Origin: Thermomicrobiales bacterium
Lineage (GTDB): Bacteria > Chloroflexota > Chloroflexia > Thermomicrobiales > UBA6265
Length of the DNA: 64,000 nt
Assembly: GCA_019637585.1 (NCBI GenBank)
Contig: JAHBVL010000002.1
Span: 380,023 to 444,022, forward strand
Reading direction: 5' to 3'
Below the pieces are notes generated by a model, which had not been told where the DNA came from, did not search any database, and saw only the letters and a list, made by a program, of their open reading frames with translations. Shown here in pieces: positions 2,160-62,774 of this stretch; positions within the stretch are counted from its first letter, which is position 1; every line of letters begins with the position of its first letter. The translations under genes and the position numbers were made by a program.

Positions 2160-2215
2160 GGTAACTGGTAACTGGTAACTGGTAACTGGCAACTAGTTAC
2201 TGGTGCATGGTGCAT
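2160..2215. repeat. heptanucleotide tandem array: (GGTAACT)x4 perfect plus 4 degenerate units (GGCAACT, AGTTACT, GGTGCAT x2)
   Basis: Read directly: ggtaactggtaactggtaactggtaactggcaactagttactggtgcatggtgcat. Starts 3 nt after the mak stop. The unit AGTTACT is the inverse of GTAACT and gives a fold-back point. Confidence 0.9.
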
Positions 2216-2254
2216 AGAACGGTAACGCTCCGCAGGAAACCCCTTCCCCCAGTC

Positions 2255-2290
2255 GCCCTTTGCCTATCGCCCTTTGCCCTTTGCCTAACT
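2255..2290. repeat. heptanucleotide tandem array (GCCCTTT / CCCTTTG type, 3 perfect + 2 degenerate units)
   Basis: gccctttgcctatcgccctttgccctttgcctaact. Overlaps the stop codon (2285-2287) of the convergent GH57 gene. The same unit recurs at 62701-62754. Confidence 0.9.
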
Positions 2291-6784: not shown

Positions 6785-7135
6785 ATGATGTCAGAACAGC
6801 CCAACGAATCACTCCCGGCCCCTGAATCCTCTCCCTCACACGAGGGTCAGGTGCAAACGTCTGAAGAACGCAAACCATCACAGCGCGGCCAGGGCCGGCA
6901 AAAACGCGGCGGTCGCGGTCGGTCGGCATACACCTTTCCCGACGATCTCGAACGCTCCTTCTGCCGGAACGCTACCCGCGTTCCCCCCGCGTCATTTCCA
7001 GTCGCGGCACGGGGCGGAGCCGCTCGACCGGCGATGGTCGAATTGGCCCGCACGGAGACCAGGGTCCTCTTCTGCGATCTCCTGCACGAGGGTCCGCATA
7101 TGTGGCCCGACGGCGAAGAGTTCTCTCCTTCCTGA
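6785..7135 (+). CDS. hypothetical protein (weak call)
   Basis: Only sizeable ORF in the 765-nt mreB/GGDEF gap. Arg/Gly-rich, with no recognisable domain. May be non-coding. Confidence 0.2.
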   Translation: MMSEQPNESLPAPESSPSHEGQVQTSEERKPSQRGQGRQKRGGRGRSAYTFPDDLERSFCRNATRVPPASFPVAARGGAARPAMVELARTETRVLFCDLLHEGPHMWPDGEEFSPS

Positions 7136-7151: not shown

Positions 7152-7181
7152 CCAGCGCCAGCGCCAGCGCCAGCGCCAGCG
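7152..7181. repeat. hexanucleotide tandem repeat (CCAGCG)x5
   Basis: ccagcgccagcgccagcgccagcgccagcg read directly. Confidence 0.9.
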
Positions 7182-7200
7182 CGCGGCATGAAAAAGCACC

Positions 7201-7304
7201 GTCATCCTGAGCGAAGCGAAGGATCTCCTGCCGCAGCAGTCTTCGGGGAGACGACGGTCGCGGCAGGAGATGACGGCGAGATCCTTCACTTCGTTCAGGA
7301 TGAC
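7201..7304. repeat. ~104-nt palindromic (hairpin-forming) repeat element of the 'HPERSEGS / EILxFxQDD' type
   Basis: Arm gtcatcctgagcgaagcgaaggatctc (7201-7227) is the inverted complement of gagatccttcacttcgttcaggatgac (7278-7304) with 2 changes. An inner stem is ctcctgccgc / gcggcaggag. Spurious translations (HPERSEGS; EILHFVQDD; SFASLRMT) are ones I recognise from many unrelated genomes. Confidence 0.8.
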
Positions 7305-7377
7305 GGTCGTGTTTCTACGGGCACCCATACAGACGTTTTCACTGCAGCAAATCAGGACTTCTGGTTCCTCTTTCCGC

Positions 7378-7436: not shown

Positions 7437-8933
7437 TTGCGGCATGGAATCCAAGTGGACCTGCACTACCCCGATCTGACAAGGCATTCACCCTGGATGA
7501 ACCCGCCAGGGATCGCAGTCGTCGCGACCATCGCCGCCGGAGCCCTCCTGCTCGTCCGGGCGGAAGGATCGACCGGCACTTTGGTGATGCTTGCCGCTGC
7601 TTTGGCGGTCGCCGCCGCGCATCTGGTGATGTCAGTTGCGACCGCTGATCGCACCGCCCCACGCTCGACGCAGGTGGCAGCCATCGGCGCACCGGTTTTC
7701 GGTCTGGCCGGCCTTGCCTGGATTCTGGCGGGAGCTATCACCGGCAGCGATGCCAGTCCACTTCGGGATGGGGCGTTGCTCGTTCTGGCCGGCTGCTTCA
7801 TGCTGGCGCTCTCGTTCGTCGCACACGCGCCGCGTGAATGGCTCGTCGCATTCACCGTCGCAGCCGCGGTACCCGGCGCGTGGCTCATGCTCGCGCCCGA
7901 TGCGCATGACGCCAGCGGGTCGTTTCGAGCGGTCGCGGCGCTCGCCGCCATCGGCGGGCTCTCGATGACGACATTCCCCGCGGTCCAGCTGACGACATCA
8001 CGGACGGTCTCCGGAAACGAGCAGGGTCTCAAAAGCTCGCTCTTCTGGTTCACAAGCGGTCTTTCCCTGGTTCTGCTGTCGAGCGCTCTGATGACCCGAG
8101 ACGACCAATGGCAGGCCTGGCACCTGCCGCTGCTGGCGCTCTCCCAGTTGGTTCTCGGGCTGGACCGATCCGACCGGCGCTCCGCTCGGCCATCCGAACG
8201 ATCCACGGCGTTCCTCGACGCATTTCCGGTCTGGGCCGGGATCATGGGATCGCTCTTCCTGGCGGTTGCCGCAGCAGCCTGGACGATGGCCGCGGAAGAA
8301 TCGCGCGAGCGGTCAGGCGTGGTGGTGCTCGCGGTGGTCGTGGTCGTCGTCTACACAACAACGCTCTCGATCTCTGGATTGATGCGATCGTCGACCATGA
8401 ACCAGCTCTCCGGATACGCCGCGACCCTCCTTCGCCAAAGCCGCACCGATCCGCTCACCGGCCTGGCCAACAGGCGAGCGATCGAGGAGCGCTTCTCGGC
8501 CGAGCTGCAGCGAGCGGCCAGATTCAATCATCCGCTCTCGATTGGCATGATCGACATCGACGACTTCAAGGCGATCAACGATACGTGGGGGCATCAGTCG
8601 GGTGACGACGTCCTCCGGCACGTCGCTCACCGCCTCGAGCTGGAGCTTCGCCAGATCGATGTTGTGGGCCGGTACGGCGGCGAGGAATTCCTGATGCTGC
8701 TGCCGGAAACAGCCGTCGAAGGCGCCTGGATCGCGGCCGACAGAGTGGTCCGCTCCATTCGCGAGATGGCGCCGCAGGGTGCGGGAGAACCGCGCTCGGT
8801 GACGATCAGCATCGGGCTGGCGTCCTTTCCCGACCATGGCCGGTCGGAAGCCGATTTGATCGCCGCCACCGACGCCGCCCTCTATGCGGCCAAACGAGCC
8901 GGGAAGAATCAGGTCGCTGTCGCGGAGCGGTGA
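7437..8933 (+). CDS. membrane-anchored diguanylate cyclase (GGDEF domain; GGEEF active site)
   Basis: Multi-TM N-terminal half. C-terminal 'LTGLANRRAIEERF...IDIDDFKAINDTWGHQSGDDVL...GRYGGEEFLMLLPE'. Start is either TTG 7437 or ATG 7497. Confidence 0.85.
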   Translation: MRHGIQVDLHYPDLTRHSPWMNPPGIAVVATIAAGALLLVRAEGSTGTLVMLAAALAVAAAHLVMSVATADRTAPRSTQVAAIGAPVFGLAGLAWILAGAITGSDASPLRDGALLVLAGCFMLALSFVAHAPREWLVAFTVAAAVPGAWLMLAPDAHDASGSFRAVAALAAIGGLSMTTFPAVQLTTSRTVSGNEQGLKSSLFWFTSGLSLVLLSSALMTRDDQWQAWHLPLLALSQLVLGLDRSDRRSARPSERSTAFLDAFPVWAGIMGSLFLAVAAAAWTMAAEESRERSGVVVLAVVVVVVYTTTLSISGLMRSSTMNQLSGYAATLLRQSRTDPLTGLANRRAIEERFSAELQRAARFNHPLSIGMIDIDDFKAINDTWGHQSGDDVLRHVAHRLELELRQIDVVGRYGGEEFLMLLPETAVEGAWIAADRVVRSIREMAPQGAGEPRSVTISIGLASFPDHGRSEADLIAATDAALYAAKRAGKNQVAVAER

Positions 8934-25121: not shown

Positions 25122-25583
25122 GTGGCCAATCCGGCAGGCACATCAGCGCAAAACGCGCCGCCATTCCATCAGGGAACGGCGGCGCACCCCTACGTCGTCA
25201 TCTTCGACGGCGGATCGCTGGGCAACCCGGGCAAGGGGTACGGGAGCTACCTGCTGGTCAGTCCGACGGGCAGGCAGGTGCACCGCGAGCTCGATTTCTC
25301 CGAGGACAACCCGGTCATGACCAACAATCAGGCCGAGTACCGCACCTTGATCGAGGCATTGCTCAATCTTCGGGAGCTCCTTGCCGATCGTTCGGCGACG
25401 GCGGCGGTGCGCATCGAAGGGGACAGTCAGCTGGTCCTCAACCAGCTGAAAGGCACCTGGAAAGTCAAGAATGAAGGGTTGCGGCTTCTGCACACAGAGG
25501 CCCGGGCGATCCTGCCGTCGTTCGGCTCAGTCGAGTTTCGGTGGCATCCGCGGGAGCGGTCGGTGAAGATTCTGGGGCATTGA
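25122..25583 (+). CDS. rnhA: ribonuclease HI-family protein
   Basis: 'VVIFDGGSLGNPG', 'TNNQAEYRTLIEAL', 'IEGDSQLVLNQLKGTWKVKN'. GTG start immediately after the EF-G stop. Confidence 0.8.
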   Translation: MANPAGTSAQNAPPFHQGTAAHPYVVIFDGGSLGNPGKGYGSYLLVSPTGRQVHRELDFSEDNPVMTNNQAEYRTLIEALLNLRELLADRSATAAVRIEGDSQLVLNQLKGTWKVKNEGLRLLHTEARAILPSFGSVEFRWHPRERSVKILGH

Positions 25584-25720
25584 AGTCGGAGTCCGGAGTC
25601 CGACGATCGTAGGTCGTGGATAGTTGATGGTAGATAGCTGCTGGTACGTGGCAGCGTGGTCCAAGCCGGACGACCGACTACCTGCTATCTACCAATCACC
25701 ATCAACCATCCACCACCGCC
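25584..25720. repeat. composite heptamer-periodic repeat: (AGTCCGG)x~3, then a GTNGATN-type array and its inverted complement (long imperfect hairpin)
   Basis: agtcggagtccggagtccga. Then gtggatagttgatggtagatagc (25614-25636), mirrored by gctatctaccaatcaccatcaaccatccac (25684-25713). Confidence 0.8.
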
Positions 25721-25756
25721 GGATGCCCCTCCCGTGCTATACTCGCTCTCCCTTCG

Positions 25757-25830
<74 letters not shown>

Positions 25831-25915
25831 CCCAACGCACGAGGCTCAAACCTTCGCCTGATCCAACGTTTGGCGGGGTTTGGGCCTCGTTTGCTGTCAG
25901 GCTCTCTCCCCCGGC

Positions 25916-26101
25916 CTACCCGGCGGCGTACTCGCCGTGGTGGGCGTCGATCCGCCGGGTCATCTGGTCCAGCTCGGCGAGGATGCGGTTCTGTTCGCGT
26001 TTGAGCATCGTCAGGGAGATGGCGTCGGCGTAGTGGGCCTGGACGAGTCGACGCGTCAGTCGGGCTTGCACTTGGCGGCGCAAGCGGTCGATCCCGCGCA
26101 C
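25916..26101 (-). pseudogene. remnant of a serine-recombinase C-terminus (about 60 codons only)
   Basis: 'LVQAHYADAISLTMLKREQNRILAELDQMTRRIDA' resembles the C-terminal coiled-coil of large serine recombinases. No catalytic domain upstream (frame closed). Lies 86 nt after tRNA-Val. Confidence 0.45.
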
Positions 26102-26268
26102 CTATCCTAGGCCACGCGGTTAGCGGCGGCAACGCCACGGAGGGTGCTCTGGGTGGAGGGTTCGCTAGTGCGAACGAGCGCAGTAGGTCGGCTTCGACCC
26201 CATGAGCTGGCCCGCCGACGCTGGCTACGGCCTCGGCCGGATGGCAGTGGCAGAGGTACCCTGACCTG

Positions 26269-27459
26269 ATGACGGTGACGGTGACAAGCGGCGAGGTGAC
26301 CGCGTTTCGTCTCCACGCTCACCACCTCACCAACCGGTTAGGTGAGCGTGGGCTACTCGATGCGGCCGGGGGTTGCGGCGTGCAGAACAGCCCGCCTGGG
26401 TCGGCGCTGCTCGCCTTCCACGCCAGGGTGCAGAACCTCACACAGGAACGGGTTGACGAAGCAGTAAGCGAGGACAAGAGCCTGTTGCAGAGCTGGTCCA
26501 TGCGCGGCTCACCCTTCTACTTCCCGACCGCAGACGCACCGGTGTTCACCACCGGCGTCCTCCCGCCCACCGAGGAGGCGATGCGGCAGTTCATCCCTGG
26601 GGTGGGACCGGCGGTGGACAAGCTCGGCCTCACTCTCACCGAGGCCGTTGAGCTGACCGGCGGCGAGATCGGCGACGTGCTGACCGGCCGCCAACTCGCC
26701 ATCGACGACCTCGGAGCAGAACTTGCCGAGCGGATCGCTAAGAAGCTGTCGAAGAAGCGACGCGACACCTGGGACGAAGAAGGTCCCCACGCCGCTGGCC
26801 AGCCGCTCGGCGAGGCCGTCGTGCACTTCTGCATCCGCATCCTGACGTTGCAGGGGGTGGTCTGCCTCGCGCCGCGGGCGGGGAACAAGGCCCCGTTCGT
26901 CTTGGTCGACGAATGGTTGGATGATCCGATCCCGGACATCGAACCGGATCATGCGCGTGCCGAGCTGGTTCGCCGCTACCTGCGCTGCTATGGACCGTCC
27001 ACACGAGCGGACTTCGCCGCATGGTTGGGGGTTCGCGCGGGCGACGCGGGCCCCTGGTGGAGCCTGGTCGAGGACGAGATGACACCGGTCGAGTTCGGTC
27101 GTAAGGCGTGGGTTCTAACCGAGGATCTCGACGCGTTGCGCTCGGCGCCGACACCAACGGAAGTGCGTCTGCTGCCGCCACGCGATCCCTACACGCAGTT
27201 GCGCGACCGCGAGACGATCGTAGACAAGAGGTACCACCAGGACGTGTGGAAGACGGTCGGCGACCCAGGCACGGTCCTCGCGGGAGGCAAGATCACCGGC
27301 ATCTGGCGTCCACACAAGACCGGACGGAAACTGACCATCAGCATCAAGACGTTCGGCGCCTTGCCAGTCCGAGACAAGAAATCGCTGCGGGCCGAGGCTG
27401 AACAGGTCGCACCACTGCGTGGAGCATCTTCCGTGGACGTTGAGTTCGACACCTACTGA
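26269..27459 (+). CDS. winged-helix DNA-binding protein of the AlkZ/YcaQ (DUF1006) DNA-glycosylase-like family
   Basis: 'FRLHAHHLTNRLGE...GVQNSPPGSALLAFHARV...SLLQSWSMRGSPFYF' and a C-terminal 'ITGIWR' pattern typical of this family. 396 aa. Confidence 0.7.
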   Translation: MTVTVTSGEVTAFRLHAHHLTNRLGERGLLDAAGGCGVQNSPPGSALLAFHARVQNLTQERVDEAVSEDKSLLQSWSMRGSPFYFPTADAPVFTTGVLPPTEEAMRQFIPGVGPAVDKLGLTLTEAVELTGGEIGDVLTGRQLAIDDLGAELAERIAKKLSKKRRDTWDEEGPHAAGQPLGEAVVHFCIRILTLQGVVCLAPRAGNKAPFVLVDEWLDDPIPDIEPDHARAELVRRYLRCYGPSTRADFAAWLGVRAGDAGPWWSLVEDEMTPVEFGRKAWVLTEDLDALRSAPTPTEVRLLPPRDPYTQLRDRETIVDKRYHQDVWKTVGDPGTVLAGGKITGIWRPHKTGRKLTISIKTFGALPVRDKKSLRAEAEQVAPLRGASSVDVEFDTY

Positions 27460-27785
27460 CCGCTCCCAAAGCCAGCGCACGCACCGCGCTGCGCGCCAGT
27501 GCACCCAGCAGCGAGACCTGCCACGCCTCCGACTTGAGGCTCCGCCACCCTCTCGGCACTGCCCGCTCGGAGCTGTCACACGTCTTGCAACGACCGGATC
27601 GACCCGCCCTCGGTGGGGCCTGGCGACCTACCTCGCTGGCATGGGATGCCACGACGGATCGGACGCCGAAATGGCGGCACCCCTCACACTCGCCCCTGGC
27701 CCCACCGGCTGATTCCCCACAGAGAACAGCTACTCGACCAGCGCCGGCCCGTTCAGATGCGAACTGCGCCACAGCGACAGCTGCG

Positions 27786-28286
27786 TCATGCATCGTCGGC
27801 GAGTGGTGGCCCCACGACTTCCAGCCCATACCTCGGTCCGACTGCATCCCACTTGGCCACTTCGACATCCATCGGTTGCCCGTCGGCGCCAGGCAAGCGG
27901 CGCTCGACAGCGGGAATGCCGACCTCATCGTAGAGATCGAAGAGACCACCGGGATTGGCAAAACCGATGAATCGGACAGGGGTCGTGCCCGTGACCCGGA
28001 AAGCATGAGGAACACCGGCGGGCAGATAGATGAAGTCGCCGGCGGTGAGCCTGTAAACGTCATCACCCGCCCGATAGGTCATCTGACCCTCGATGATGAA
28101 AAACGCCTCGGACTCATGCGTATGGCGATGGAGCGGCGTCGCGATACCCGGCGGTTGGGTCACCAGAGCTACGTCGAGACCCTGCGTTTCCGAGGGCAAC
28201 GCCAAGCGTTCGAAAAGTGAGCCCATCGCCCAGGTAGCTGGACCAGTTCCACCTGGCCGAAAAACAACGTCGGGCTGGCCGCTCAT
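27786..28286 (-). CDS. cupin-domain protein (quercetin-dioxygenase-like)
   Basis: 'GIATPLHRHTHESEAFFIIEGQMTY...GDFIYLPAGVPHAF'. Start at M21 of the ORF (28286). Confidence 0.75.
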   Translation of the reverse strand: MSGQPDVVFRPGGTGPATWAMGSLFERLALPSETQGLDVALVTQPPGIATPLHRHTHESEAFFIIEGQMTYRAGDDVYRLTAGDFIYLPAGVPHAFRVTGTTPVRFIGFANPGGLFDLYDEVGIPAVERRLPGADGQPMDVEVAKWDAVGPRYGLEVVGPPLADDA

Positions 28287-28423
28287 GTAGCACCTCCTTT
28301 GCGTGCATGCGCATGTCTTTGCACGACTGTAGCGCTGCCATCCCACTGGATGCGGGACGCTGCATGGTATCGTTGGCGGGCATCGCCCACGATGCGATCA
28401 CCGCTGTTACACGACGAAGGCAG

Positions 28424-29605
28424 ATGACAGTAACCCCTCGCAACCGCTCCGGCCTTTTCCTCTTTTCGCTGCTTGCGGCGCTGCTGCTCGTGGCGTCCGC
28501 ATCGGCGCAGAGCGAGAGCCTCGGTGTTTCGTCCAAGCGCTTTATCGTGATCGACGCCAATACCGGTGAGGTGATCGCCGAGCAGAACGCCGACGAGCGG
28601 GTGGCGATTGCGTCGTTGACCAAGGTCTTCACCCTGATCGAAGCGCTGGAGCGGGGCGACCTCGACCAGGTGATCACCACACAATCTGAAGATCTCTACG
28701 ATTCCAGCTCGACCCTGATGGGTTTCGGAGCGGGAGAGACATTCACGCTGAAAGATCTCCTCTACGGCATGATGCTTCCCTCCGGCAACGACGCCGCGCA
28801 TGCCATCGCCAGGGCGCTCGGCGCGGATGAGGGGTTGAGCGCGGACCAGGCATACGACAACTTCATCCGGATGATGAACGAGCGAGCCGTCAACATGGGG
28901 CTCACCAACACCCAGTTCAAGAATCCACATGGCTGGGGCGTGGAAGGTCACTATTCCACGGCTCGCGACATCGCCACCTTCGTCATGTACGCGCTGCAGT
29001 TCCCCGAATTCGAACAGATCACCGGCGCGACGACCTACACCACATCGAACGGCTACTACACGGTGATCAACACCAACCGGCTGCTCTCTGATCGCGACTA
29101 CGCTGGATTGGTGGGCGGAAAAACCGGCTATGACGAAGATGCCGGGTATTGCCTCGTCGAAGTGGCACGGCGTGGCGACACCACACTGATCTCAGTGACA
29201 CTCGATGGCGTCGCTCCCGACGTCTGGTACATGGACAATGAAATTCTGCTCGACTACGGCTTCGCCGACCGGGAGCGCCGCGCGACATCCGCCGAGGGAC
29301 CGATCGCCGAAACACTCTCCTATGTCAACCCTGACCTGACCTGGATCAAAACCTCCAGCGCGTCGGGCGGCAGCCTCAGTGGCGGCGTCGAGGCATCTGA
29401 GCTCTCCAGCGCCGCTCCGGAGGAGGATCAATCGACAGGTGGGGGAGAAGTCGATGCGGTTTCGATCGATTCCCCGGTCGCCGTCAGCTCCAGTAACGAC
29501 GGATTGCTCAACTCCACCCTGCTCGGCGTCATCGCCGCCGGACTCCTCATCGCCGCCGTCGCCGCCCTCAAGGCGTTCCGGCCGAGCGCCGCATCGAGTT
29601 CGTAG
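28424..29605 (+). CDS. D-alanyl-D-alanine carboxypeptidase (S11 PBP) with a C-terminal TM anchor
   Basis: Signal peptide from M40 of the ORF. SxxK 'ASLTKV', 'SGN' in 'LPSGNDAAH', 'KTG' in 'GGKTGYDE'. Ser-rich linker and a hydrophobic tail. Confidence 0.85.
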   Translation: MTVTPRNRSGLFLFSLLAALLLVASASAQSESLGVSSKRFIVIDANTGEVIAEQNADERVAIASLTKVFTLIEALERGDLDQVITTQSEDLYDSSSTLMGFGAGETFTLKDLLYGMMLPSGNDAAHAIARALGADEGLSADQAYDNFIRMMNERAVNMGLTNTQFKNPHGWGVEGHYSTARDIATFVMYALQFPEFEQITGATTYTTSNGYYTVINTNRLLSDRDYAGLVGGKTGYDEDAGYCLVEVARRGDTTLISVTLDGVAPDVWYMDNEILLDYGFADRERRATSAEGPIAETLSYVNPDLTWIKTSSASGGSLSGGVEASELSSAAPEEDQSTGGGEVDAVSIDSPVAVSSSNDGLLNSTLLGVIAAGLLIAAVAALKAFRPSAASSS

Positions 29606-29636
29606 TTCGTAGTCCGGAGTCCGGAGTCCGGAATCC
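29603..29636. repeat. heptanucleotide array (AGTCCGG type, ~5 units)
   Basis: tagttcgtagtccggagtccggagtccggaatccg. Begins on the dac stop codon. The same unit occurs at 25584-25604. Confidence 0.9.
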
Positions 29637-29644
29637 GACCAACC

Positions 29645-29679
29645 ATTTCCCATCTCCCATTTCCTATTTCCCATTTCCC
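29645..29679. repeat. heptanucleotide array (ATTTCCC type, 5 units)
   Basis: atttcccatctcccatttcctatttcccatttccc. Confidence 0.9.
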
Positions 29680-29697
29680 ACATGAATAGGATCAGAT

Positions 29698-30821
29698 ACA
29701 TGTGAGACAGGGGAGGGGATGAAAAAGAGGGGAAGCATCTTTCACACTGATGCGGTGTCGAATCGCGCAGCGGAAAGGAGTTCCCCTCATGAGCAAGCGT
29801 AGCAAGAAGCAGAGAGGTGCTGCATTCCGTGGCCATGGCCACGGAATGCAGCTGGCGCGGCGAATGCCGTGGGTGCCGGACATCCCGACGTTGAGCGAAG
29901 CGGCGAAGCGACGGTTGCAGGTCGTGGAGTTCTCGCTCAAGCGAGGGGTGGCGATGGCCTGTGAGGCGTTTGGGGTGTCCCGGTCGACGGTGTACCGCTG
30001 GCGCAAGCAGTACCAGCCCTACCGGGTGACAAGCCTGGAGCCGCGCTCACGGGCGCCGAAGACGACGCGGCCGGTCCGGTGGACCTGGGAGGATGAGCAA
30101 CGGATTCTGACCGTGCGCCAGCAGTATCCCCGCTGGGGGAAGCGCAAACTGCTGCCCATGCTGCGGGAGCAGGGATGCACGCTCTCGGAAGCGACCGTCG
30201 GACGCATTCTGGCTCGGCTGAAGGCGGCGGGACGGCTGATCGAACCGAAACGCATGCCCGTTCGGCGCCCCCGGCCCCTCCGCCCTCATGCCACGCGCAA
30301 GCCGAAGGACTACCAGCCCCAGCGTCCTGGCGACTTGCTGCAGATCGATACGGTCCATCTCACCACCCGGGAAGGAACCCAGCTCCGGCAGTTCAGCGCC
30401 ATTGATGTCATCTCCCGCGTCGCTGCGGTCACCGTCCGCCGCTCCGCCACCGCGGGCACGGCCCGCGCCTTTCTGGAGGAGTTGCTCGATCGCTACCCCA
30501 TCCGGATCCGGGCTATCCAGGTCGATGGTGGCAGCGAGTTCATGGCCGAGTTCGAGGACGCCTGTGCCGCCAACGACATTCCGGTCTATGTCCTGCCACC
30601 CCGCTCACCCAAACTCAACGGTCGGGTGGAGCGGTTCAATCGGACCAGCCAAGAAGAGTTCTGGCACTGCTACGACGGCGACCTCGACCTGGTCGCCGCC
30701 AACGCCGCGCTGCGGGCGTGGGAGGCGACGTACAATCACGTCCGACCACATCAGGCGCTGCAGATGCAAACCCCGCTGGACTATCTCCGCTCCTTCGCCA
30801 CGCAGCAGCTGTCTCATATGT
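29698..30821 (+). mobile_element. IS481-family insertion sequence (~1.12 kb), apparently intact
   Basis: Terminal inverted repeats acaTGTGAGACAG (29698-29710) and CTGTCTCAtAtgt (30809-30821) match 12/13. The transposase stop lies inside the right IR, as is typical for IS481. No clear target duplication seen. Confidence 0.8.
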
Positions 30822-30823
30822 AG
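29789..30823 (+). CDS. IS481-family DDE transposase (HTH + rve integrase core)
   Basis: RBS aaggag precedes ATG 29789. 'GVSRSTVYRWRKQY' (HTH). 'LLQIDTVHL', 'IQVDGGSEF' and 'PKLNGRVERFNRT' (D-D-E core). Confidence 0.85.
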   Translation: MSKRSKKQRGAAFRGHGHGMQLARRMPWVPDIPTLSEAAKRRLQVVEFSLKRGVAMACEAFGVSRSTVYRWRKQYQPYRVTSLEPRSRAPKTTRPVRWTWEDEQRILTVRQQYPRWGKRKLLPMLREQGCTLSEATVGRILARLKAAGRLIEPKRMPVRRPRPLRPHATRKPKDYQPQRPGDLLQIDTVHLTTREGTQLRQFSAIDVISRVAAVTVRRSATAGTARAFLEELLDRYPIRIRAIQVDGGSEFMAEFEDACAANDIPVYVLPPRSPKLNGRVERFNRTSQEEFWHCYDGDLDLVAANAALRAWEATYNHVRPHQALQMQTPLDYLRSFATQQLSHM

Positions 30824-30989
30824 TGATCCCATACACCACATTGACAGACCCATCCGCCCCCTCCTATCCTCTCGCCAACAACTGAAGACGAGGCAAATCG
30901 ACGCTGACCAGGACGAGTACCGGGCATTCGGCGCCTCAGAAAGACCAGTATTCGATGCGAGCTGGTTCGTCTGAATTCCGGAGAAGACC

Positions 30990-31140
30990 ACCTGCGAGTT
31001 GCGTTCTGAACCTTTCCTCTGGAGAGCAGTAGGCGCGCCGGTTGACACCGTTATCCGTCGGAAGAGCGGTCATTCGTGACCGGAACTAGGGTGGAACCAC
31101 GTGCGCCAGACGTCCCTTTTCGGGTGTCTGGCGATTTTTG
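30990..31140 (+). promoter_or_regulatory. T-box riboswitch leader of thrS (5' boundary approximate)
   Basis: T-box sequence AACTAGGGTGGAACCACGTG at 31084-31103. Overlapping intrinsic terminator cgccagac...gtctggcg + ATTTTTG at 31104-31139. AGAG-containing stem-I-like region at 31021 onward. Candidate Thr ACC codons at 31047-31049 and 31079-31081; the specifier is not resolved. Confidence 0.7.
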
Positions 31141-31159: not shown

Positions 31160-32968
31160 ATGATGGTTCCCGAAAGTATCGACGCACTGACATCGGATAT
31201 CGATCTCGGCGAATCGCGCGGCGATCCGCGTGCCTGGGAGCTGGCGCGCATGCGCCATTCCTGCGCGCACCTGATGGCCGAGGCGATCCAGGAGCTGCGG
31301 CCGGACGTCAAGTTCGCCATCGGCCCGGCCATCGAGGATGGCTTCTACTACGACCTCGATCTGGGAGCGCCGCTGTCAGCCGACGATCTGGCCGAGATCG
31401 AGACCCGGATGTGGGCGCACCAGAAAGCCGATGAGCCATTCGTTCGCCGCAGTGTGAGTCGCGAGGAAGCGCTCGAGATTTTCGGCAACAACCCCTACAA
31501 GGTCGAGTTGATCCAGGGATTTGCCGAGGGAGAAGAGATCACCACCTATCAGCAGGGTGATTTTCTCGATCTCTGCCGCGGTCCGCATGTCGAGTCGACG
31601 GGTCGCATTGGTCCATTCAAGCTGCAATCAGTAGCGGGCGCCTACTGGCGAGGCGACGAAAAGCGGCCAATGCTGCAACGCGTCTATGGAACCGCGTGGC
31701 CGACGCAGGAGGAGCTCGACGCCCACCTGGAGAAACTCGAGGAAGCGCAACGCCGCGATCATCGCAAACTCGGCCGCGAACTCGACATGTACATGGTTTC
31801 AGACGAGATCGGCCCGGGCTTGATCCTGTGGCAACCGAAAGGAGCCACAGTCCGCTACCTGGTCGAACAGTTCGAGCAGCAGGAGCAGCTGGCCCGCGGC
31901 TACAAACTGGTCTACACGCCGCACATCGCGTCTGAAAAGATTTACAAGCAGTCCGGGCACCTGGAAACCTACCACGAGAACATGTACGCCCCAATGTCCA
32001 TCGACGAGGTCGACTACTACCTCAAACCGATGAACTGTCCCGGCCACATCATGATCTTCAAGAACGACGTCCGGTCGTATCGCGATCTGCCGATCCGGTA
32101 CGCCGAGCTGGGCACCGTCTACCGCTACGAGCGATCGGGCACCCTCCACGGCATGCTCCGGGTGCGCGGATTCACGCAGGACGACGCCCACATTTTCTGC
32201 ACACCCGATCAGGTCGAGGATGAAGTCGAGGGGGTGATCGACCTGGCCCAGCACATGGCCGACGTCTTCGGGTATCAGTTCAAGGCCTATCTCGCCACGC
32301 GTCCAGAAAAAGCGATCGGGGACGACGAAGTCTGGCAGCTGGCCATCAACCGGCTGGTCACCGCGCTCGATCGCAAGGGGCTCGCCTACGAGATCGACGA
32401 AGGCGGCGGCGCTTTCTATGGCCCGAAGATCGACATCAAATGGGTCGATGCGCTCGGTCGCGAGTGGACCGGTCCCACGATTCAGGCCGACTTCAACCTG
32501 CCCGAACGGTTCGACGTTTCCTATATCGGGGAGGATGGCGAGCGACATCGCGCCGTGATGATCCATCGCACCCTGCTCGGCTCGATGGAACGGTTCGTTG
32601 GCGGTCTTATCGAGCACTATGCCGGCGCGTTTCCCGTTTGGCTGGCGCCGGTGCAGGCAGTGCTGATCCCCATCACCGACGACCAGGTCGAATATGCGAC
32701 GCAGATCGGCAACGACCTCAAGCAGCGCGGTTTCCGGGTGGAGATCGATACCGGCCGGGACCGCATGCAGGCCAAGATTCGCAACGCGCAGATGCAGAAG
32801 GTGCCCTACATGCTGGTCATCGGCAAACGAGAGGCCGAAGCGGGCACCGTTGCCGTTCGCGCCCGCACCGGAGACGATCTCGGCGCGATGCCGGCCTCGG
32901 ATTTCGCGGATCTGTTGACTGAGCTGGCTGAGTCGAAATCCCTCGCGCTCACTCGCTCGCAGGACTGA
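31160..32968 (+). CDS. thrS: threonine--tRNA ligase (short N-terminus, no obvious TGS domain)
   Basis: 'RHSCAHLMAEAI' editing-domain motif already at residue ~31. Class II motifs 'YRYERSG...GMLRVRGFTQDDAHIF' and 'GGGAFYGPKID'. 602 aa. Confidence 0.95.
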   Translation: MMVPESIDALTSDIDLGESRGDPRAWELARMRHSCAHLMAEAIQELRPDVKFAIGPAIEDGFYYDLDLGAPLSADDLAEIETRMWAHQKADEPFVRRSVSREEALEIFGNNPYKVELIQGFAEGEEITTYQQGDFLDLCRGPHVESTGRIGPFKLQSVAGAYWRGDEKRPMLQRVYGTAWPTQEELDAHLEKLEEAQRRDHRKLGRELDMYMVSDEIGPGLILWQPKGATVRYLVEQFEQQEQLARGYKLVYTPHIASEKIYKQSGHLETYHENMYAPMSIDEVDYYLKPMNCPGHIMIFKNDVRSYRDLPIRYAELGTVYRYERSGTLHGMLRVRGFTQDDAHIFCTPDQVEDEVEGVIDLAQHMADVFGYQFKAYLATRPEKAIGDDEVWQLAINRLVTALDRKGLAYEIDEGGGAFYGPKIDIKWVDALGREWTGPTIQADFNLPERFDVSYIGEDGERHRAVMIHRTLLGSMERFVGGLIEHYAGAFPVWLAPVQAVLIPITDDQVEYATQIGNDLKQRGFRVEIDTGRDRMQAKIRNAQMQKVPYMLVIGKREAEAGTVAVRARTGDDLGAMPASDFADLLTELAESKSLALTRSQD

Positions 32969-44608: not shown

Positions 44609-44753
44609 AATCGGCACGAGATTGAGCACACACACTACTCGAATTTGTGAGAATGAGAATATCTCTGGATGTTTCACCGTAGCACGAATGCTGCGGTGAT
44701 TTTCGTTTCGCGAAACCCGGCAAGTGTCGGCGTGATGCGTTCGTTCGCGAGAG

Positions 44754-51177: not shown

Positions 51178-51963
51178 ATGCCGGCTCGAGCCATGTGGAA
51201 AGCTGAGATCGTCGCCGGCGACTTCACCGTTCCCATCCGTCTTTATTCCGTTCTCGAGAGCAAAACGGTCCGCTTCCGGCTTCTGCATGCCAAAGACCTG
51301 GAGCCGGTTTTTCAGCAGATGGTCGATCCATCGACCGGCCAACCCGTGTCCGCCGAGGAGATTCGGCGCGGAGTGGAGGTCGAACCGGGCGTCTACGTTC
51401 TGATCACCGACGAAGAGCAACAGGAGCTGACCCCTCCCGAGTCCCGCACCATCGCTGTCGAGAGGGTGGTGAACCGGAGTGCCATCGACCAGCGCTGGTT
51501 CGATCATCCCTACTATCTGGGACCGGATGGCAACACCGACAGCTACTTCGCGTTCGCCGAAGCGCTGGCATCGAGCGATCAGGTCGCAGTCGTCCAGTGG
51601 GTCATGCGCAAATCCCGGTACAACGGCGCCATTCATGCCGCCGGCGGCTATCTGATGATCCAGACTTTTCGATCCGCGGAGGAACTGCTCAAGATCGATC
51701 CGGTTCGGGTTCCCCAGAACCGGGCTCCCGACGAGCGGGAGCTGCGCCTGGCCGAACAATTGATCACGGCGCTCAAAGATGACTTCGACCCCGCCGCCTA
51801 TCAGGATGAGTACCGGAAACAGGTGCTGGAACTGATCGAGATGAAGGCATCGGGCAAACTGGTCAAGTTCCCCAAAGCGAAAAAGGAAAAGGAGGAACCC
51901 TCGCTGCTGGAAGCCCTGGAAGCGAGTCTGGGTCAACCGAGAAAGGCGGCGGCCGGTGCCTGA
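51178..51963 (+). CDS. ku: Ku DNA end-binding protein (paralogue 1)
   Basis: 'RAMWKAEIVAGDFTVPIRLYS' Ku core N-terminus; Lys-rich tail; 261 aa. Confidence 0.9.
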   Translation: MPARAMWKAEIVAGDFTVPIRLYSVLESKTVRFRLLHAKDLEPVFQQMVDPSTGQPVSAEEIRRGVEVEPGVYVLITDEEQQELTPPESRTIAVERVVNRSAIDQRWFDHPYYLGPDGNTDSYFAFAEALASSDQVAVVQWVMRKSRYNGAIHAAGGYLMIQTFRSAEELLKIDPVRVPQNRAPDERELRLAEQLITALKDDFDPAAYQDEYRKQVLELIEMKASGKLVKFPKAKKEKEEPSLLEALEASLGQPRKAAAGA

Positions 51964-52993
51964 GAAGTATCACAAGCGCCGCGACTCCGGCGAACCATTC
52001 CCATTCTGGAGTGGCACGATCAGCTTTGGTCTCGTCAGCGTGCCTGTCGATCTCTACTCGTCGGTGCGCACCCATCGCGTGCCGATGCGCATGCTCTCCA
52101 GCAAGGGCGTCCCCCTCAAGCGGAAGTACTTCTGTTCGGCGGAGAACATTCAGCTGACGCCGAAAGAGGTCGTACGAGGGTTCGAGCAGGAAGACGGCTC
52201 GTTCGTCACGGTCACCGACGAAGAACTGGAGAAACTGGCACCCCGAAAATCACGCGATATCGATCTTCGCCTCTTTGTCGATCGCAATGCAATTCCCGTG
52301 GGGCTCTATCAACGCCCCTACGTGCTGGCGCCAGGCGGGGAATCGACCAAGGCATATCATCTCCTGGCGCAAACGATGGAGGAGATGAATCTGGCGGGAA
52401 TCGCCACATTTGTCATGCGCGGAAAAGAGTATCTGGCGGCAATCACCGCGGAAGAGGGGATTCTCCGCGCCACCACCCTGCACTTCAGCGACGAGATCCG
52501 CACCCCTGACGCGATTGGTCTCCCCGACATCCAGAAAGCTCCTGATACCGTCCGAAAGAGCGCGCAAAACGCGCTGTCCTCGCTGGAGAAAGAGGAAATC
52601 GACCCCTTCCTCTTCATCGACCGGACCGCCGCCGACCTGATCGAGCTCGCAACGGCTAAACAGGAGGAATCGCGCGACGTCATCGAGGTCAGCACGGAGG
52701 TTGACACCGCAGAAGCGGATGATGACGGGGACAATGTCATCGACATCATGTCGCTGCTGCGCAAACGGATGGACGGCAAGGGAGGGTCGAGCAGCGAATC
52801 GAAGCAACCGAAGGAACGATCCGCCGAGCCACCGAAAGACCGATCGAAACGCGACGACACGAGCGTTGAAGATGCTGATCTGGAGTCGGCAAGCAAACAG
52901 GAGCTCTACGACAAGGCGTCCGAGATGGAGATCGCCGGCCGGAGCAGCATGTCCAAAGACCAGCTTCTCGCCGCGATCCGCAAAACCAGGTGA
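51956..52993 (+). CDS. ku: Ku DNA end-binding protein (paralogue 2) with an acidic/basic linker and a C-terminal HeH/Rho_N-like motif
   Basis: GTG start overlapping the ku1 end by 8 nt. 'FWSGTISFGLVSVPVDLYS'. C-terminus 'ELYDKASEMEIAGRSSMSKDQLLAAIRK'. Confidence 0.85.
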   Translation: MPEKYHKRRDSGEPFPFWSGTISFGLVSVPVDLYSSVRTHRVPMRMLSSKGVPLKRKYFCSAENIQLTPKEVVRGFEQEDGSFVTVTDEELEKLAPRKSRDIDLRLFVDRNAIPVGLYQRPYVLAPGGESTKAYHLLAQTMEEMNLAGIATFVMRGKEYLAAITAEEGILRATTLHFSDEIRTPDAIGLPDIQKAPDTVRKSAQNALSSLEKEEIDPFLFIDRTAADLIELATAKQEESRDVIEVSTEVDTAEADDDGDNVIDIMSLLRKRMDGKGGSSSESKQPKERSAEPPKDRSKRDDTSVEDADLESASKQELYDKASEMEIAGRSSMSKDQLLAAIRKTR

Positions 52994-55390
52994 TCAGCCG
53001 AGCAGCGATCGGCGCGACGATTCAAACGCCTGCCACGGGTTGCGCTTTCTCGCCTTGATCAGATCGGGCACCTCGCGCAAGCTCACGTTGGGAGGACCGC
53101 TGCCCTCCGGCGCCAGCTGATCCCATTCGATGGGCAGCGCCACAGTTGCTCCTGGTCTCGCTCTGGGTGAATAGGGAGCGATCGCCGTCGCCTGGCGATC
53201 GTTGCGCAGATAGTCCACAAAGACCTTGTCCACCCGTTTCGCTTTGGACATCGACGCGGTGTACCGGTCCGGCTGGGAGGCGGCTAGCTCCTCTGCCAGC
53301 GCACGAGCAAACTTCTTGACCGCCGGCCAGGTGGGACCGGGTTCGACCGGAACGACGACGTGCACCCCTTTGCCGCCGGTCAGCTTGGCGAATGGGACGA
53401 GTCCCAGCGCCTCCACCCTTCCCTTCACCTCTTCTGCCGCCTCGACAACTCTGCGCCAGGGCAGCCCCTCGGCAGGATCGAGATCGAAGGTGATCTGATC
53501 GGGTTGATCGAGATGACCCGCTTTCGAACCCCAGGTGTGAATCTCGATCACACCAATCTGGGTGAGACCGATGAGCGACTGCACGGAGTCGACCATCGCG
53601 TAGGGGTCGCCTTCCTCTTCGACATCGACCCGCGGCACGATGTCGGGAACTCCGGCTCCAGCGTGCTTCTGATAGAAGCATTCTCCGTCGATACCTTCCG
53701 GGCACCGGAGCAACGACAGCGGCCGGTGCTCCATGTAGGGGAGGGCGTCCGGGGCGATGGTTTTCCAGTAGCCGGCCAGATCCTGCTTGCTCACCTGAAC
53801 GTCGGGCCAGAGGATTTTGTCTGGATTCGTCAGCCTGACTCGTTTGGATGCCGCCTTGCTCGATTTCGGTTTCGCGGTCATCTGCTGCTCCTTCACCACC
53901 GTCTCCGCTGGTTTGTCGTCGCGCAACCCCCGGAAACTCGGATGCCGCAACACGCCAGAATCGGTCCAGCCAGTGAATTCGACTTCAGCCACAAGTTCCG
54001 GTTTGACCCAGGTCGCGTCCCGAATGCCGATGCCGGGGACCTCCCCCTCCACCGGCGGCGAGTCGATCTCGATGGCGTCGAGCATCTTCCGCACCGACAG
54101 GAGGGTCTCCTGGTCGTATCCAGTGCCCACCCTTCCGGCGTAGCGCAGCGGTTGCCCGATTTCGTCGCGGGTACCGACAAGCAGCGCACCGAATCCCTGT
54201 CTGCGCCCCTCCGGTTTTGTACAGCCGATGACGACGAACTCCTGCCGCTGCACGCACTTCGCTTTCAGCCAGCTCGACGCCCTGCCCGGTTCGTAGGAGT
54301 CGCCGGCGCGTTTGCAAATGATCCCCTCCAACCCCATCTTGCAGGCTTCATCGAGAAACGCCTGGCCATTCCCGGCGACATGGTCGCCGAAGCGGATCGT
54401 CCCTTTCTGGCTGTCGCCCACGATCGAGCGAGCGACTCGCTTGCGGTCGACGAGGGAAGCGCCCCGCAGATCCCACCCGTCGAAGAAGAGCGCGTCGAAC
54501 ACGACGTAGACAATCGACGCATCGCGAGTGCGAACGGCGTTCTGCAATCGCTGAAAGCTCGAAATGCCCGCCGAATCGAGCACTACGGCTTCGCCATCGA
54601 GAAGCGCGAAGGTGCAGGGCAACCTGGCGGCCGCTTCCGCAACGTGGGGGAAACGGTCGGTCCAGTCATGTCCATTCCGGGTGATCAGCGTGACGTTCCC
54701 ATGATCGACGAGGCAGAAGAGGCGGTATCCGTCGAGCTTCGGTTCGTGGATCCAGTCGTCCCCCTGCGGAACTGTCTCCGTCACCGACGCCAGCTGGAAT
54801 CCGATATCGCCGAACGACGAAGCCTGCGTCACTCCGGCAAGGGATGAGACATCGAGCGCTTCACGCGGCCGGACCGATTCCTTCGCCGCGTACTTGGCAT
54901 CATTGCGCTTAATCAGCAGCCAGTTGTCTTTTCTGGCCGTTTTGAGCTTCTTGTTGCCAATCCGCACCAGCGACCACCGGCCGCTCAGTTTTTCGCCGTG
55001 GAGTGTGAAATCGAGCCGGCCCATGGCGATCGCTCTGGCCGGGTGATCGTCCGACGGTTCCCAGGTTCCCTGATCCCAGATCACCATCGAACCGGCGCCA
55101 TATCCCGGGGCGGGAATCTCTCCTTCGAATGTCAGGTACTCCAGCGGGTGATCCTCGGTCTGAACCGCCAGACGCCTCAACCCGACTTCCATCAGCGGTT
55201 CCTTGGGCACCGCCCAGCTCCTGAGCACGCCTTCGTACTCCAGCCTCAGGTCATAATGCAGCGTCGAGGCATCGTGCTTCTGCACGACAAAACGCCATCC
55301 TTCGCCGGAGGCGGACTCTTCATCACCAGCAGGCTCCGGCGTGGCGGAGAAATCTCGCTTCTGACGATAGTCGCGGAGTTTGCTGCTCAT
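52994..55390 (-). CDS. ligD: multifunctional ATP-dependent DNA ligase D (phosphoesterase-ligase-polymerase order)
   Basis: N-terminus 'LRDYRQKRDFSATPEP...FVVQKHDASTLHYDLRLE' (PE). Central 'EPKLDGYR' (ligase KxDG). C-terminal 'LTNPDKILWP...FYQKH...FDLDP' (LigD polymerase). Its stop abuts the ku2 stop (tgatca). Confidence 0.9.
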   Translation of the reverse strand: MSSKLRDYRQKRDFSATPEPAGDEESASGEGWRFVVQKHDASTLHYDLRLEYEGVLRSWAVPKEPLMEVGLRRLAVQTEDHPLEYLTFEGEIPAPGYGAGSMVIWDQGTWEPSDDHPARAIAMGRLDFTLHGEKLSGRWSLVRIGNKKLKTARKDNWLLIKRNDAKYAAKESVRPREALDVSSLAGVTQASSFGDIGFQLASVTETVPQGDDWIHEPKLDGYRLFCLVDHGNVTLITRNGHDWTDRFPHVAEAAARLPCTFALLDGEAVVLDSAGISSFQRLQNAVRTRDASIVYVVFDALFFDGWDLRGASLVDRKRVARSIVGDSQKGTIRFGDHVAGNGQAFLDEACKMGLEGIICKRAGDSYEPGRASSWLKAKCVQRQEFVVIGCTKPEGRRQGFGALLVGTRDEIGQPLRYAGRVGTGYDQETLLSVRKMLDAIEIDSPPVEGEVPGIGIRDATWVKPELVAEVEFTGWTDSGVLRHPSFRGLRDDKPAETVVKEQQMTAKPKSSKAASKRVRLTNPDKILWPDVQVSKQDLAGYWKTIAPDALPYMEHRPLSLLRCPEGIDGECFYQKHAGAGVPDIVPRVDVEEEGDPYAMVDSVQSLIGLTQIGVIEIHTWGSKAGHLDQPDQITFDLDPAEGLPWRRVVEAAEEVKGRVEALGLVPFAKLTGGKGVHVVVPVEPGPTWPAVKKFARALAEELAASQPDRYTASMSKAKRVDKVFVDYLRNDRQATAIAPYSPRARPGATVALPIEWDQLAPEGSGPPNVSLREVPDLIKARKRNPWQAFESSRRSLLG

Positions 55391-58513: not shown

Positions 58514-58562
58514 TTCTCCTCTCCGCCTTCCCGCCTGTTCGCCTCTCCGCCTCGTCCCCGCC
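58514..58562. repeat. degenerate ~8-nt tandem units ending in CGCC (TYTCCGCC-like, ~5 units)
   Basis: ttctcctctccgcc ttcccgcc tgttcgcc tctccgcc tcgtccccgcc. Confidence 0.6.
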
Positions 58563-58593
58563 GCATCATCTATACTTCACCGGCTGTGTGCTC

Positions 58594-62503: not shown

Positions 62504-62700
62504 CGCTCAGGAGTTCCATCTTTGTCGGCGCGTGTCCTGTGCGGACCTGCACAGTATCTCCAGGCTGGCCGGGACTCGCAAGACGCACACAATTGCTGTG
62601 ACATCACTCCTGCAACTTCGCCCTGATCATTGCAGGTGATACCTATCCATCCTTTACCGGTCGTGCCCTTCGCGAGTTGAGCTCTCCTCTTTCGCTACCT

Positions 62701-62754
62701 TCCATTGCCCTTTGCCCTTTGCCCTTTGCCCATCACCCTTCGTGCCCTTTGCCC
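62701..62754. repeat. heptanucleotide array (CCCTTTG x3 perfect plus degenerate units)
   Basis: tccattgccctttgccctttgccctttgcccatcacccttcgtgccctttgccc. Same unit as 2255-2290. Confidence 0.9.
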
Positions 62755-62774
62755 AAAAATGCTAGACTTCACCC

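Follow-up and report, generated by a model that had tools for sequence, protein, structure and literature searches.

Short tandem arrays with a 7-nucleotide (nt) period are a recurrent feature of the intergenic DNA in a 64,000-nt stretch of the metagenome-assembled genome (MAG) of an uncultured Thermomicrobiales (Chloroflexota) bacterium, namely positions 380,023 to 444,022 of the forward strand of the 704,812-bp contig JAHBVL010000002.1 (GenBank assembly GCA_019637585.1; 62% G+C), hereafter the window. We conclude that these arrays belong to the known heptanucleotide long simple-sequence repeats (LSSRs) that resemble the short tandemly repeated repetitive (STRR) sequences, and that nothing found here points to a new mechanism or regulatory system. 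In the most probable reading, they arose by slippage, are largely neutral, and occupy spacer DNA that is free of constraint, and we favor this explanation over the others considered below. The survey of arrays covered this one window. Arrays were detected with Tandem Repeats Finder (TRF) and with a separate self-match scan over periods 4–12, accompanied by 100 dinucleotide-preserving shuffles; the genes around the arrays were annotated with Pfam (the window's proteins are MBX3069891 to MBX3069935). For comparison we obtained, via cluster look-ups and contig retrieval, three relatives at ~91–95% nucleotide identity: JGI 3300061720 (L081, L084), GCA_020853875.1 (L129, L131), and JGI 3300048837 (L196). 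The arrays, together with the one strong array of another period discussed below, are as follows.

2160–2204, + strand: GGTAACT × 6.4 (TRF, raw sequence).
2201–2215, + strand: TGGTGCA × 2.1, the second part of compound array 2160–2215 (TRF).
2255–2285, + strand: GCCCTTT × 4.4, imperfect (TRF, raw sequence).
25584–25604, + strand: AGTCCGG × 2.3 (TRF, as CGGAGTC × 2.3 at 25587–25602; raw sequence).
25612–25717, + strand: decayed array of 7- or 14-nt period (GATNGNT), together with an inverted copy of itself (TRF, period 14 × 2 at 25619–25646; fold).
29596–29637, + strand: GTAGTYC/GGAGTCC × 6 (TRF, as GAGTCCG × 6.0; raw sequence).
29643–29680, + strand: CCATTTC × 5.4, G-free and unstructured (TRF, raw sequence).
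58518–58553, + strand: imperfect 8-nt array (CCTCTCCG) × 4.5 (TRF, period 8).
62705–62754, + strand: TTGCCCT × 6.9 (TRF, raw sequence).
7152–7182, + strand: CCAGCG × 5.2, a hexamer array 17 nt past the stop of open reading frame (ORF) 6785–7135 (TRF).

A preliminary description of this DNA had reported 7-nt arrays at six places, and TRF, the self-match scan, and the raw sequence agree on an array at each of them; the looser array of about 8 nt that it had placed at 58514–58562 corresponds to the period-8 array at 58518–58553. Two of its heptamer arrays need qualification. The periodicity at 25584–25604 and 25614–25713 is real, but the former has only 2.3 copies and is a palindrome as much as a repeat, while the latter is a decayed array with its inverted copy.

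The arrays exceed chance expectation. The self-match scan found four strong period-7 arrays in the window and none in the 100 shuffles, which also contained no strong array at any other period from 4 to 12; the arrays thus fit the definition of LSSRs as head-to-tail units of 1–11 nt that run on for longer than chance would allow in the genome concerned. The hexamer at 7152–7182 was the sole other strong array of any period 4–12 in the window. LSSRs with a unit length that is not a multiple of 3 are restricted to non-coding DNA. In agreement with this, every array lies within the 9.3% of the window that is intergenic, of which the arrays make up about 6%, and the period-7 TRF rows inside genes have at most 2.9 copies and the weakest scores. 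Density was compared, at an identical TRF threshold, between the window and 1.22 Mb of sequence taken from 80 further genomes of Thermomicrobiales and Chloroflexota. The window has 5 period-7 arrays (78 per Mb) versus 7 in the 1.22 Mb (5.7 per Mb; binomial P = 1.8e-4), which is ~14 times the density of the comparison Thermomicrobiales. A few of the comparison genomes (L038, L077, and L062) do carry good arrays; such arrays are therefore scattered through the order but concentrated in this lineage. We conclude that heptamer arrays are a trait of this lineage and not of the whole order. The array of L062, a distant Thermomicrobiales MAG (~64% identity in the GH57 protein), is an independent case: immediately 3′ of its GH57 stop codon, at 7625–7715, come (GGACGGA) × 4.7 and then an 8-mer array (GGGTGATA).

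The arrays abut two kinds of element, stop codons and promoter cores. Four adjoin stop codons (2160, 2285, 25584, and 29596–29637). Compound array 2160–2215 begins 3 nt past the TGA stop of a maltokinase-like gene (700–2157), and array 2255–2285 ends at the TAG stop (2285–2287, minus strand) of a GH57 branching-enzyme gene, in whose sense direction it is G-rich (AAAGGGC); together these two arrays fill most of the 127-nt spacer between the convergent genes. Array 25584–25604 lies immediately 3′ of the RNase HI TGA stop, and array 29596–29637 includes the TAG codon (29603–29605) that ends the gene for the S11 D-Ala-D-Ala carboxypeptidase. In two spacers, 2158–2284 and 29606–29683, arrays account for most of the sequence. 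The other four arrays adjoin promoters, those of tRNA-Val, tRNA-Ser(UGA), tRNA-Ser(CGA), and the T-box thrS gene, so that the placement in gene 3′ flanks originally proposed holds for the first four but not for these. The long hairpin 25612–25717 (about 105 nt) ends ~15 nt before the extended −10 TGcTATACT of tRNA-Val; array 58518–58553 separates the stop codon of the antiporter gene from the tRNA-Ser(UGA) promoter, whose TATACT it precedes; and within a divergent promoter region, array 62705–62754 ends 5 nt upstream of the TG in TGcTAGACT, the extended −10 of tRNA-Ser(CGA). For thrS, whose promoter is TTGACA-18-TATCCT, the array of L129, (CCATCTC) × 3.7, ends 4 nt upstream of the −35; in the window, an insertion sequence (IS) element now lies between array 29643–29680 and this promoter.

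These neighbors (tRNAs, thrS, RNase HI, glucan branching enzyme) are housekeeping genes. The window contains seven tRNA genes, and the T-box leader ahead of the threonyl-tRNA synthetase gene thrS (31160–32968) was found at 30895–31120 (97 bits), with its terminator hairpin at 31104–31133. The tRNA promoters resemble the extended −10 type (TGcTATACT, TGcTAGACT; 25740–25756, 58575–58590, and 62758–62770), and their −35 region is not conserved among relatives that are ~93% identical; thrS and tRNA-Asp have good TTGACA −35 boxes. We considered and rejected the arrays as −35 elements, as no TTGACA-like hexamer lies 16–18 nt from the −10 boxes and the −35 region is unconserved. Nor do the arrays have the placement typical of phase variation, with a repeat in an ORF or between −35 and −10; they lie after stop codons or upstream of −10.

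Genes and most spacers align continuously between the window and the relatives at about 93%. The arrays do not follow this pattern. At the S11 stop, the window has 6 units, L081 has 8, and L129 has 5, in each case GTAGTCC/GGAGTCC, and the last codons of the S11 protein vary between lineages. The thrS-side array is CCATTTC × 5.4 in the window versus CCATCTC × 3.7 in L129. At the tRNA-Ser(CGA) site the unit itself differs, with (TTGCCCT) × 7 in the window versus perfect (TTCCCAG) × 7 in L084 and perfect × 8 in L131; ~165 nt are non-homologous here, and identity returns exactly at AAATGCTAGACT. The RNase HI/tRNA-Val spacer is wholly different in all three relatives, with neither the AGTCCGG array nor the long hairpin, and homology returns 3 nt before TGcTATA. 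Because homology resumes at these two points, array boundaries coincide with constrained elements. Arrays are thus present in the relatives' orthologous spacers at the S11-stop, thrS, and tRNA-Ser(CGA) sites but not in the RNase HI/tRNA-Val spacer, and their presence in independent assemblies indicates that they are not assembly artefacts.

The copy-number differences at orthologous sites bear out the earlier suggestion that the arrays are slippage hot-spots, and copy-number polymorphism of this kind is expected of LSSRs. The relatives' arrays are 100% perfect repeats, which implies recent expansion. The imperfect 8-mer array at 58518–58553 is conserved in L084 and L196 with one substitution, as expected if slippage needs perfect repeats. 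In summary, the alignments show that perfect heptamer arrays change faster than point substitutions accumulate and that imperfect arrays are stable. Non-repeat DNA has also been exchanged beside one array: a ~120-nt segment upstream of the acyl-CoA ligase gene (62584–62705), which contains the inverted repeat ATCACTCCTGCAA...TTGCAGGTGAT, is replaced by unrelated sequence in the relatives. Outside this group, the GH57 branching enzyme matched only Thermomicrobiales and other Chloroflexota relatives among GTDB genomes, at up to 82% amino-acid identity, and the GH57-adjacent spacers of 80 other Thermomicrobiales are unrelated to the 2160–2290 spacer. A metagenome scan with the S11 peptidase returned only homologues of ~36% identity, mostly from gut samples, and no relatives; for the maltokinase-like gene, no relative in the protein database exceeded 49% identity.

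How would slippage give rise to these patterns? We suggest that strand slippage together with template switching, in replication or repair, would create, resize, and replace repeats with a 7-nt unit. The sites would be the few constraint-free stretches of a compact genome, and because only unconstrained DNA would tolerate an array, each array would grow until it reached a constrained element, in one direction a stop codon and in the other the core of a promoter (the extended −10 for tRNA genes, the −35 for thrS). Perfect arrays would slip much faster than bases are substituted; therefore copy number would differ in every pair of relatives, units would drift, and whole arrays would be replaced. 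Occasional fold-back or template-switch events could generate inverted copies, such as those of 25612–25717 and the inverted unit in 2160–2204. Units capable of forming hairpins (TCCGGA) or of G3N4/C3N4 type may be favored if their structures stabilize slipped intermediates, which could lead to a restricted set of units. Effects on transcription, such as a block to read-through or a hairpin at the 3′ end, would be a by-product and independent of unit sequence.

The arrays were also compared with transcription terminators. Local hairpins do occur. An inverted unit, AGTTACT, among the last units of array 2160–2215 gives a 12-bp hairpin at ~2178–2204; array 25584–25604 is also a perfect 6-bp hairpin (GTCGGA..TCCGAC); and region 29590–29700 holds a 9-bp hairpin formed by TCCGGA palindromes. 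Folding was nevertheless indistinguishable from shuffles in five of the six array regions (z = −1.4, not significant, for 2150–2290; z = −0.8 for 29590–29700), and the C-rich arrays are essentially unstructured (z > 0). The exception was the inverted array 25612–25717: the 146-nt region that includes it, 25580–25725, folds with −63 kcal/mol (z = −3.9), and 0 of 200 shuffles folded as well. In scans of the window for a hairpin plus U-tract, no array matched and no T-run followed any array. Canonical terminators were not enriched in the window (15 vs 12.4, 12 vs 12.5, and 18 vs 13.2 expected in three scans), and they were detected at the T-box attenuator (31104–31133) and 3′ of tRNA-Asp (44674–44699). 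Since the scans found no excess of terminators and none at the arrays, classical Rho-independent termination, which the preliminary description had put forward, is unsupported.

A less conventional form of termination deserves separate consideration. The hairpin-capable arrays (GGTAACT, AGTCCGG/TCCGGA, and 25612–25717) could be U-tract-less "I-shaped" terminators or 3′-end stabilizers, with the function kept despite sequence turnover. Four arrays begin 0–3 nt from a stop codon, local hairpins occur within 2178–2204, 25585–25604, and 29612–29637 alongside the very stable 25612–25717, and, as canonical terminators are not enriched in the window, another mode of termination would be required. In addition, the relatives' non-homologous RNase HI/tRNA-Val spacer holds a hairpin, CCCTCTC...GAGAGGG followed by TTCT, which suggests that a hairpin has been kept there. 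Against this, the arrays lack a U-tract, the folding energies of 2150–2290 and 29590–29700 match those of shuffles, canonical terminators are present where they are expected, most genes of the window have no array, and copy number varies freely. On balance we regard such a function as possible but rather unlikely.

The C-rich arrays raise a different possibility, that these (GCCCTTT, CCATTTC, TTGCCCT, and the relatives' TTCCCAG) are selected G-quadruplex/i-motif or Rho-loading (rut-like) tracts that insulate the downstream promoter. Array 62705–62754 and the arrays of L084, L131, and L129 contain a canonical G3N1–7 × 4 motif on the minus strand, of which the window has three in all. The exchange of units upstream of tRNA-Ser(CGA) left the G3N4 register and a length of ~49 nt intact. 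The C-rich arrays are predicted to be unstructured, and two of them, 29643–29680 and 58518–58553, lie downstream of co-directional genes; the pattern of strand and position also resembles that of the GGGAATC and GGGGAYT repeats described previously (PMC4692102). However, the other arrays of the window, including 2255–2285 and 29643–29680, fail the canonical quadruplex pattern, 62705–62754 has no co-directional upstream gene to terminate, and neither 2160–2215 nor the AGTCCGG arrays are rich in C or contain G3. By a rough estimate made without a script, about one-third of random heptamers at 62% GC would contain a GGG or CCC run, so that 4 such units of about ten are not significant. Rehm et al. 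saw no regulatory role for their repeats either (PMC4692102). Selection for quadruplexes or Rho loading thus appears unlikely.

Pure local slippage does not account for the re-use of units. Two units are each found at a second locus, identical in sequence and strand: GCCCTTT, at 2255, appears again at 62705, and AGTCCGG, at 25587, appears again at 29611. As two or more tandem copies, GCCCTTT and AGTCCGG were found nowhere else in the 1.8 Mb compared, except for AGTCCGG in the orthologous array of L129. The 64 kb thus contain seven heptamer arrays, or eight if the array of period 8 is included, and two of their units are re-used, whereas ~0.027 unit coincidences are expected among seven arrays (P(≥2) about 3.5e-4), in accord with the initial argument that re-use goes beyond independent local slippage. 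Seeding of arrays by over-represented heptamers was rejected, because the units as single copies rank at the 12th–75th percentile. We also rejected a special sharing of units across genomes: window units as three-copy arrays matched 5, 1, 15, and 8 IMG/VR stretches, and four composition-matched permuted units matched equally often (12, 5, 7, and 10 stretches). Some of these IMG/VR contigs are themselves rich in heptamers. L134, labeled "viral", has (TTTGCCC) × 14 opposite an inverted G-rich array at 8328–8520, right after a gene for a 1168-aa FG-GAP protein, and L139, L141, and L142 carry many heptamer units that share an ACTGG core; all four are probably cellular or proviral DNA of other heptamer-rich organisms.

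Two explanations would account for re-use directly. In the first, each array is a multimeric site at which DNA or single-stranded RNA is bound by one protein for every 7 nt (such as a cold-shock-domain, nucleoid, or regulatory protein), and the re-used units are specific sites of a regulon. The identity of units at separate loci and the position of arrays next to promoters of tRNA and aminoacyl-tRNA-synthetase genes fit this model, as does published speculation on the cyanobacterial and Beggiatoaceae heptamers and on binding of CspB to heptamer repeats. Yet there are at least seven unrelated units within 64 kb, a unit has been replaced at an orthologous site, the relatives have wholly lost the array in one spacer, and the neighboring genes have no common function. 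The number of unrelated units and the unit swap make a common binding protein, and with it the protein-binding tracts suggested at the outset, very unlikely.

In the second, the arrays spread as or with mobile DNA (elements resembling miniature inverted-repeat transposable elements (MITEs), IS-associated sequences, or ectopic gene conversion), and identical distant units are copies of one another. Re-use is non-random, an IS lies directly beside 29643–29680, an IS-like end follows the array of L081, and the AGTCCGG arrays at 25584 and 29611 both terminate in TCCGAC. On the other side, loci that share a unit have no common flanks, terminal inverted repeats, or target duplications, and both arrays are present in L129 without the IS. 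Moreover, a 15-nt core of the left arm of 25612–25717, GATGGTAGATAGCTG, recurs in the window (≤3 mismatches) only as its own inverted arm. Spread with mobile DNA therefore seems highly improbable.

An IS element and other sequences that look mobile lie near some of the arrays. The IS element (29684–30835), which separates the CCATTTC array from the thrS −35 and is absent from L129, encodes an rve-type transposase (29750–30823); its imperfect terminal inverted repeats are ~27 bp long, and the target duplication of 6 bp reads CCACAT. In L081, the array is followed by the IS-like end (CCTGTCTCA...), at which the contig breaks off. The hexamer array (CCAGCG) × 5 precedes a MITE-like inverted repeat at 7197–7308, with arm CCGTCATCCTGAGCGAAGCGAAGGATCTC and its near-perfect complement; an 86%-identical copy at a non-orthologous site in L129 (5821–5947) makes this element appear mobile. 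Directly 3′ of tRNA-Val, a segment of ~2.5 kb (25833–28347) is absent from the three relatives, which have ~98 nt there; it contains a gene for an AlkZ-like DNA glycosylase (26269–27459) and a second ORF (27534–28220), and it resembles a small island that has inserted at the tRNA gene. Elsewhere in the window, 51193–55390 is a non-homologous end-joining cluster in which two Ku genes, one with a Rho_N-like tail, lie beside a gene for a 798-aa LigD with ligase and Prim-Pol domains.

Although we favor slippage in unconstrained DNA, several points weigh against it. The re-use of two units is improbable under independent random origins (P about 3.5e-4), and pure local slippage is insufficient to explain it. 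Both units at the tRNA-Ser(CGA) site keep the G3N4 register and an array of ~49 nt, which could reflect selection for a structural property. The stop-adjoining arrays are hairpin-capable and the promoter-adjoining arrays are C-rich and unstructured, a division that hints at two functional classes (n = 8). The ~14-fold excess over other Thermomicrobiales is also unexplained, and the sample is 64 kb of a genome. Slippage thus leaves three things to be accounted for: why two units are re-used, why the arrays are specific to a lineage, and why 7 nt is preferred at all. A further model is that the arrays are selected, sequence-independent structural modules, with a hairpin type after stop codons and a C-rich/G3N4 type before promoters, that replace canonical terminators, insulate packed transcription units, and are renewed by a lineage-specific repeat-generating activity. 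If true, such an activity would account for the 7-nt register and for the restricted, re-used set of units, but we consider the model improbable.

Repeats of 7-nt period have precedents in other bacteria. The STRR sequences of heterocystous cyanobacteria (Calothrix, Anabaena/Nostoc) are likewise heptamers; their several unit families per genome and their re-use of units at many dispersed intergenic loci may be paralleled by the seven heptamer arrays and two re-used units of the 64 kb, and the strictly heptameric, intergenic arrays of the window have the STRR-like character originally ascribed to them. Unlike the cyanobacterial sequences, they occur in Chloroflexota, and their units (GGTAACT, TGGTGCA, GCCCTTT, AGTCCGG, CCATTTC, and TTGCCCT) are not those of STRR1–3. 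The STRR1–3 consensus sequences are reportedly CCCCAGT, TTGGTCA, and CAACAGT, as Mazel and colleagues are said to have found in 1990. Contingency-locus simple-sequence repeats of host-adapted pathogens are similar in being slippage-prone tandem repeats of strain-variable copy number, but their units are mostly 1–5 nt and lie inside ORFs or between −35 and −10, where they switch genes; the arrays of the window lie outside ORFs and upstream of −10, next to housekeeping genes.

Heptanucleotides were identified as the commonest class of LSSR in many phylogenetically scattered bacteria, with slippage over the roughly 7 nt in contact with the polymerase as the proposed cause (Mrázek et al. 2007, as summarized in PMC4679880). 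The LSSRs of that survey (Mrázek, Guo & Shah 2007, via PMC4679880) resemble the arrays in being tandem 7-nt units that exceed chance, are mostly intergenic, are patchy across lineages, and are attributed to slippage. The survey predates any Thermomicrobiales genome, and the evidence here consists of 64 kb plus orthologous sites in three relatives, with no whole-genome statistic. Closer still in several respects are the G-rich heptamer repeats of Xanthomonas (GGGAATC) and Nostoc (GGGGA(C/T)T), which show an intergenic bias, positions near ORF ends, inverted pairs, and "extensive length and sequence variation" among close relatives, and for which no function was found (Rehm et al. 2015; PMC4692102). 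The arrays have the same non-coding bias, proximity to ORF ends, inverted pairs, and variation in length and sequence at the same intergenic sites, likewise with no demonstrated function, and their G3N4 units (GGGCAAA and GGGAAAT in the window; GGGAACT in relatives) are of similar form. In contrast to those repeats, only about half of the units here are G3N4, and there is no preference for four units. Quadruplex-forming heptamer repeats are defined by a G3–4 tract in every unit and at least four tracts; in the window, only 62705–62754 matches the canonical quadruplex pattern, as do the arrays of L084, L131, and L129. In Nostoc, heptamer repeats were reported to affect promoters modestly, with no mechanism given (preprint 10.1101/2022.06.06.494920).

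The TAACTGA repeats described in marine Beggiatoaceae and in certain cyanobacteria (MacGregor 2015; PMC4679880) are also intergenic direct repeats of a heptamer that is not over-represented as a singleton, and the unit at 2160–2204, read as TAACTGG, is one base from TAACTGA. Beggiatoaceae, however, have one dominant unit (169 sets), mostly just upstream of starts, whereas many units at stops and promoter cores occur here. Our literature search found no paper that ties Chloroflexi or Thermomicrobia to such repeats, in keeping with the supposition that they had not been described for a genome of this type; as a class, however, intergenic heptanucleotide LSSRs are documented in several phyla (PMC4679880, PMC4692102).

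Together, these results extend STRR-like heptanucleotide repeats to Chloroflexota, specifically to Thermomicrobiales, and the three-way comparison reveals how the arrays evolve: copy number is altered at each node, one junction stays in place while its unit is exchanged, and edges lie at stop codons and promoter cores. For strain typing in metagenomes, the arrays could be useful markers, and they are a warning against taking intergenic repeats for regulatory motifs. They also provide a system in which to address the long-standing question of why long simple-sequence repeats in bacteria favor a period of 7 nt.

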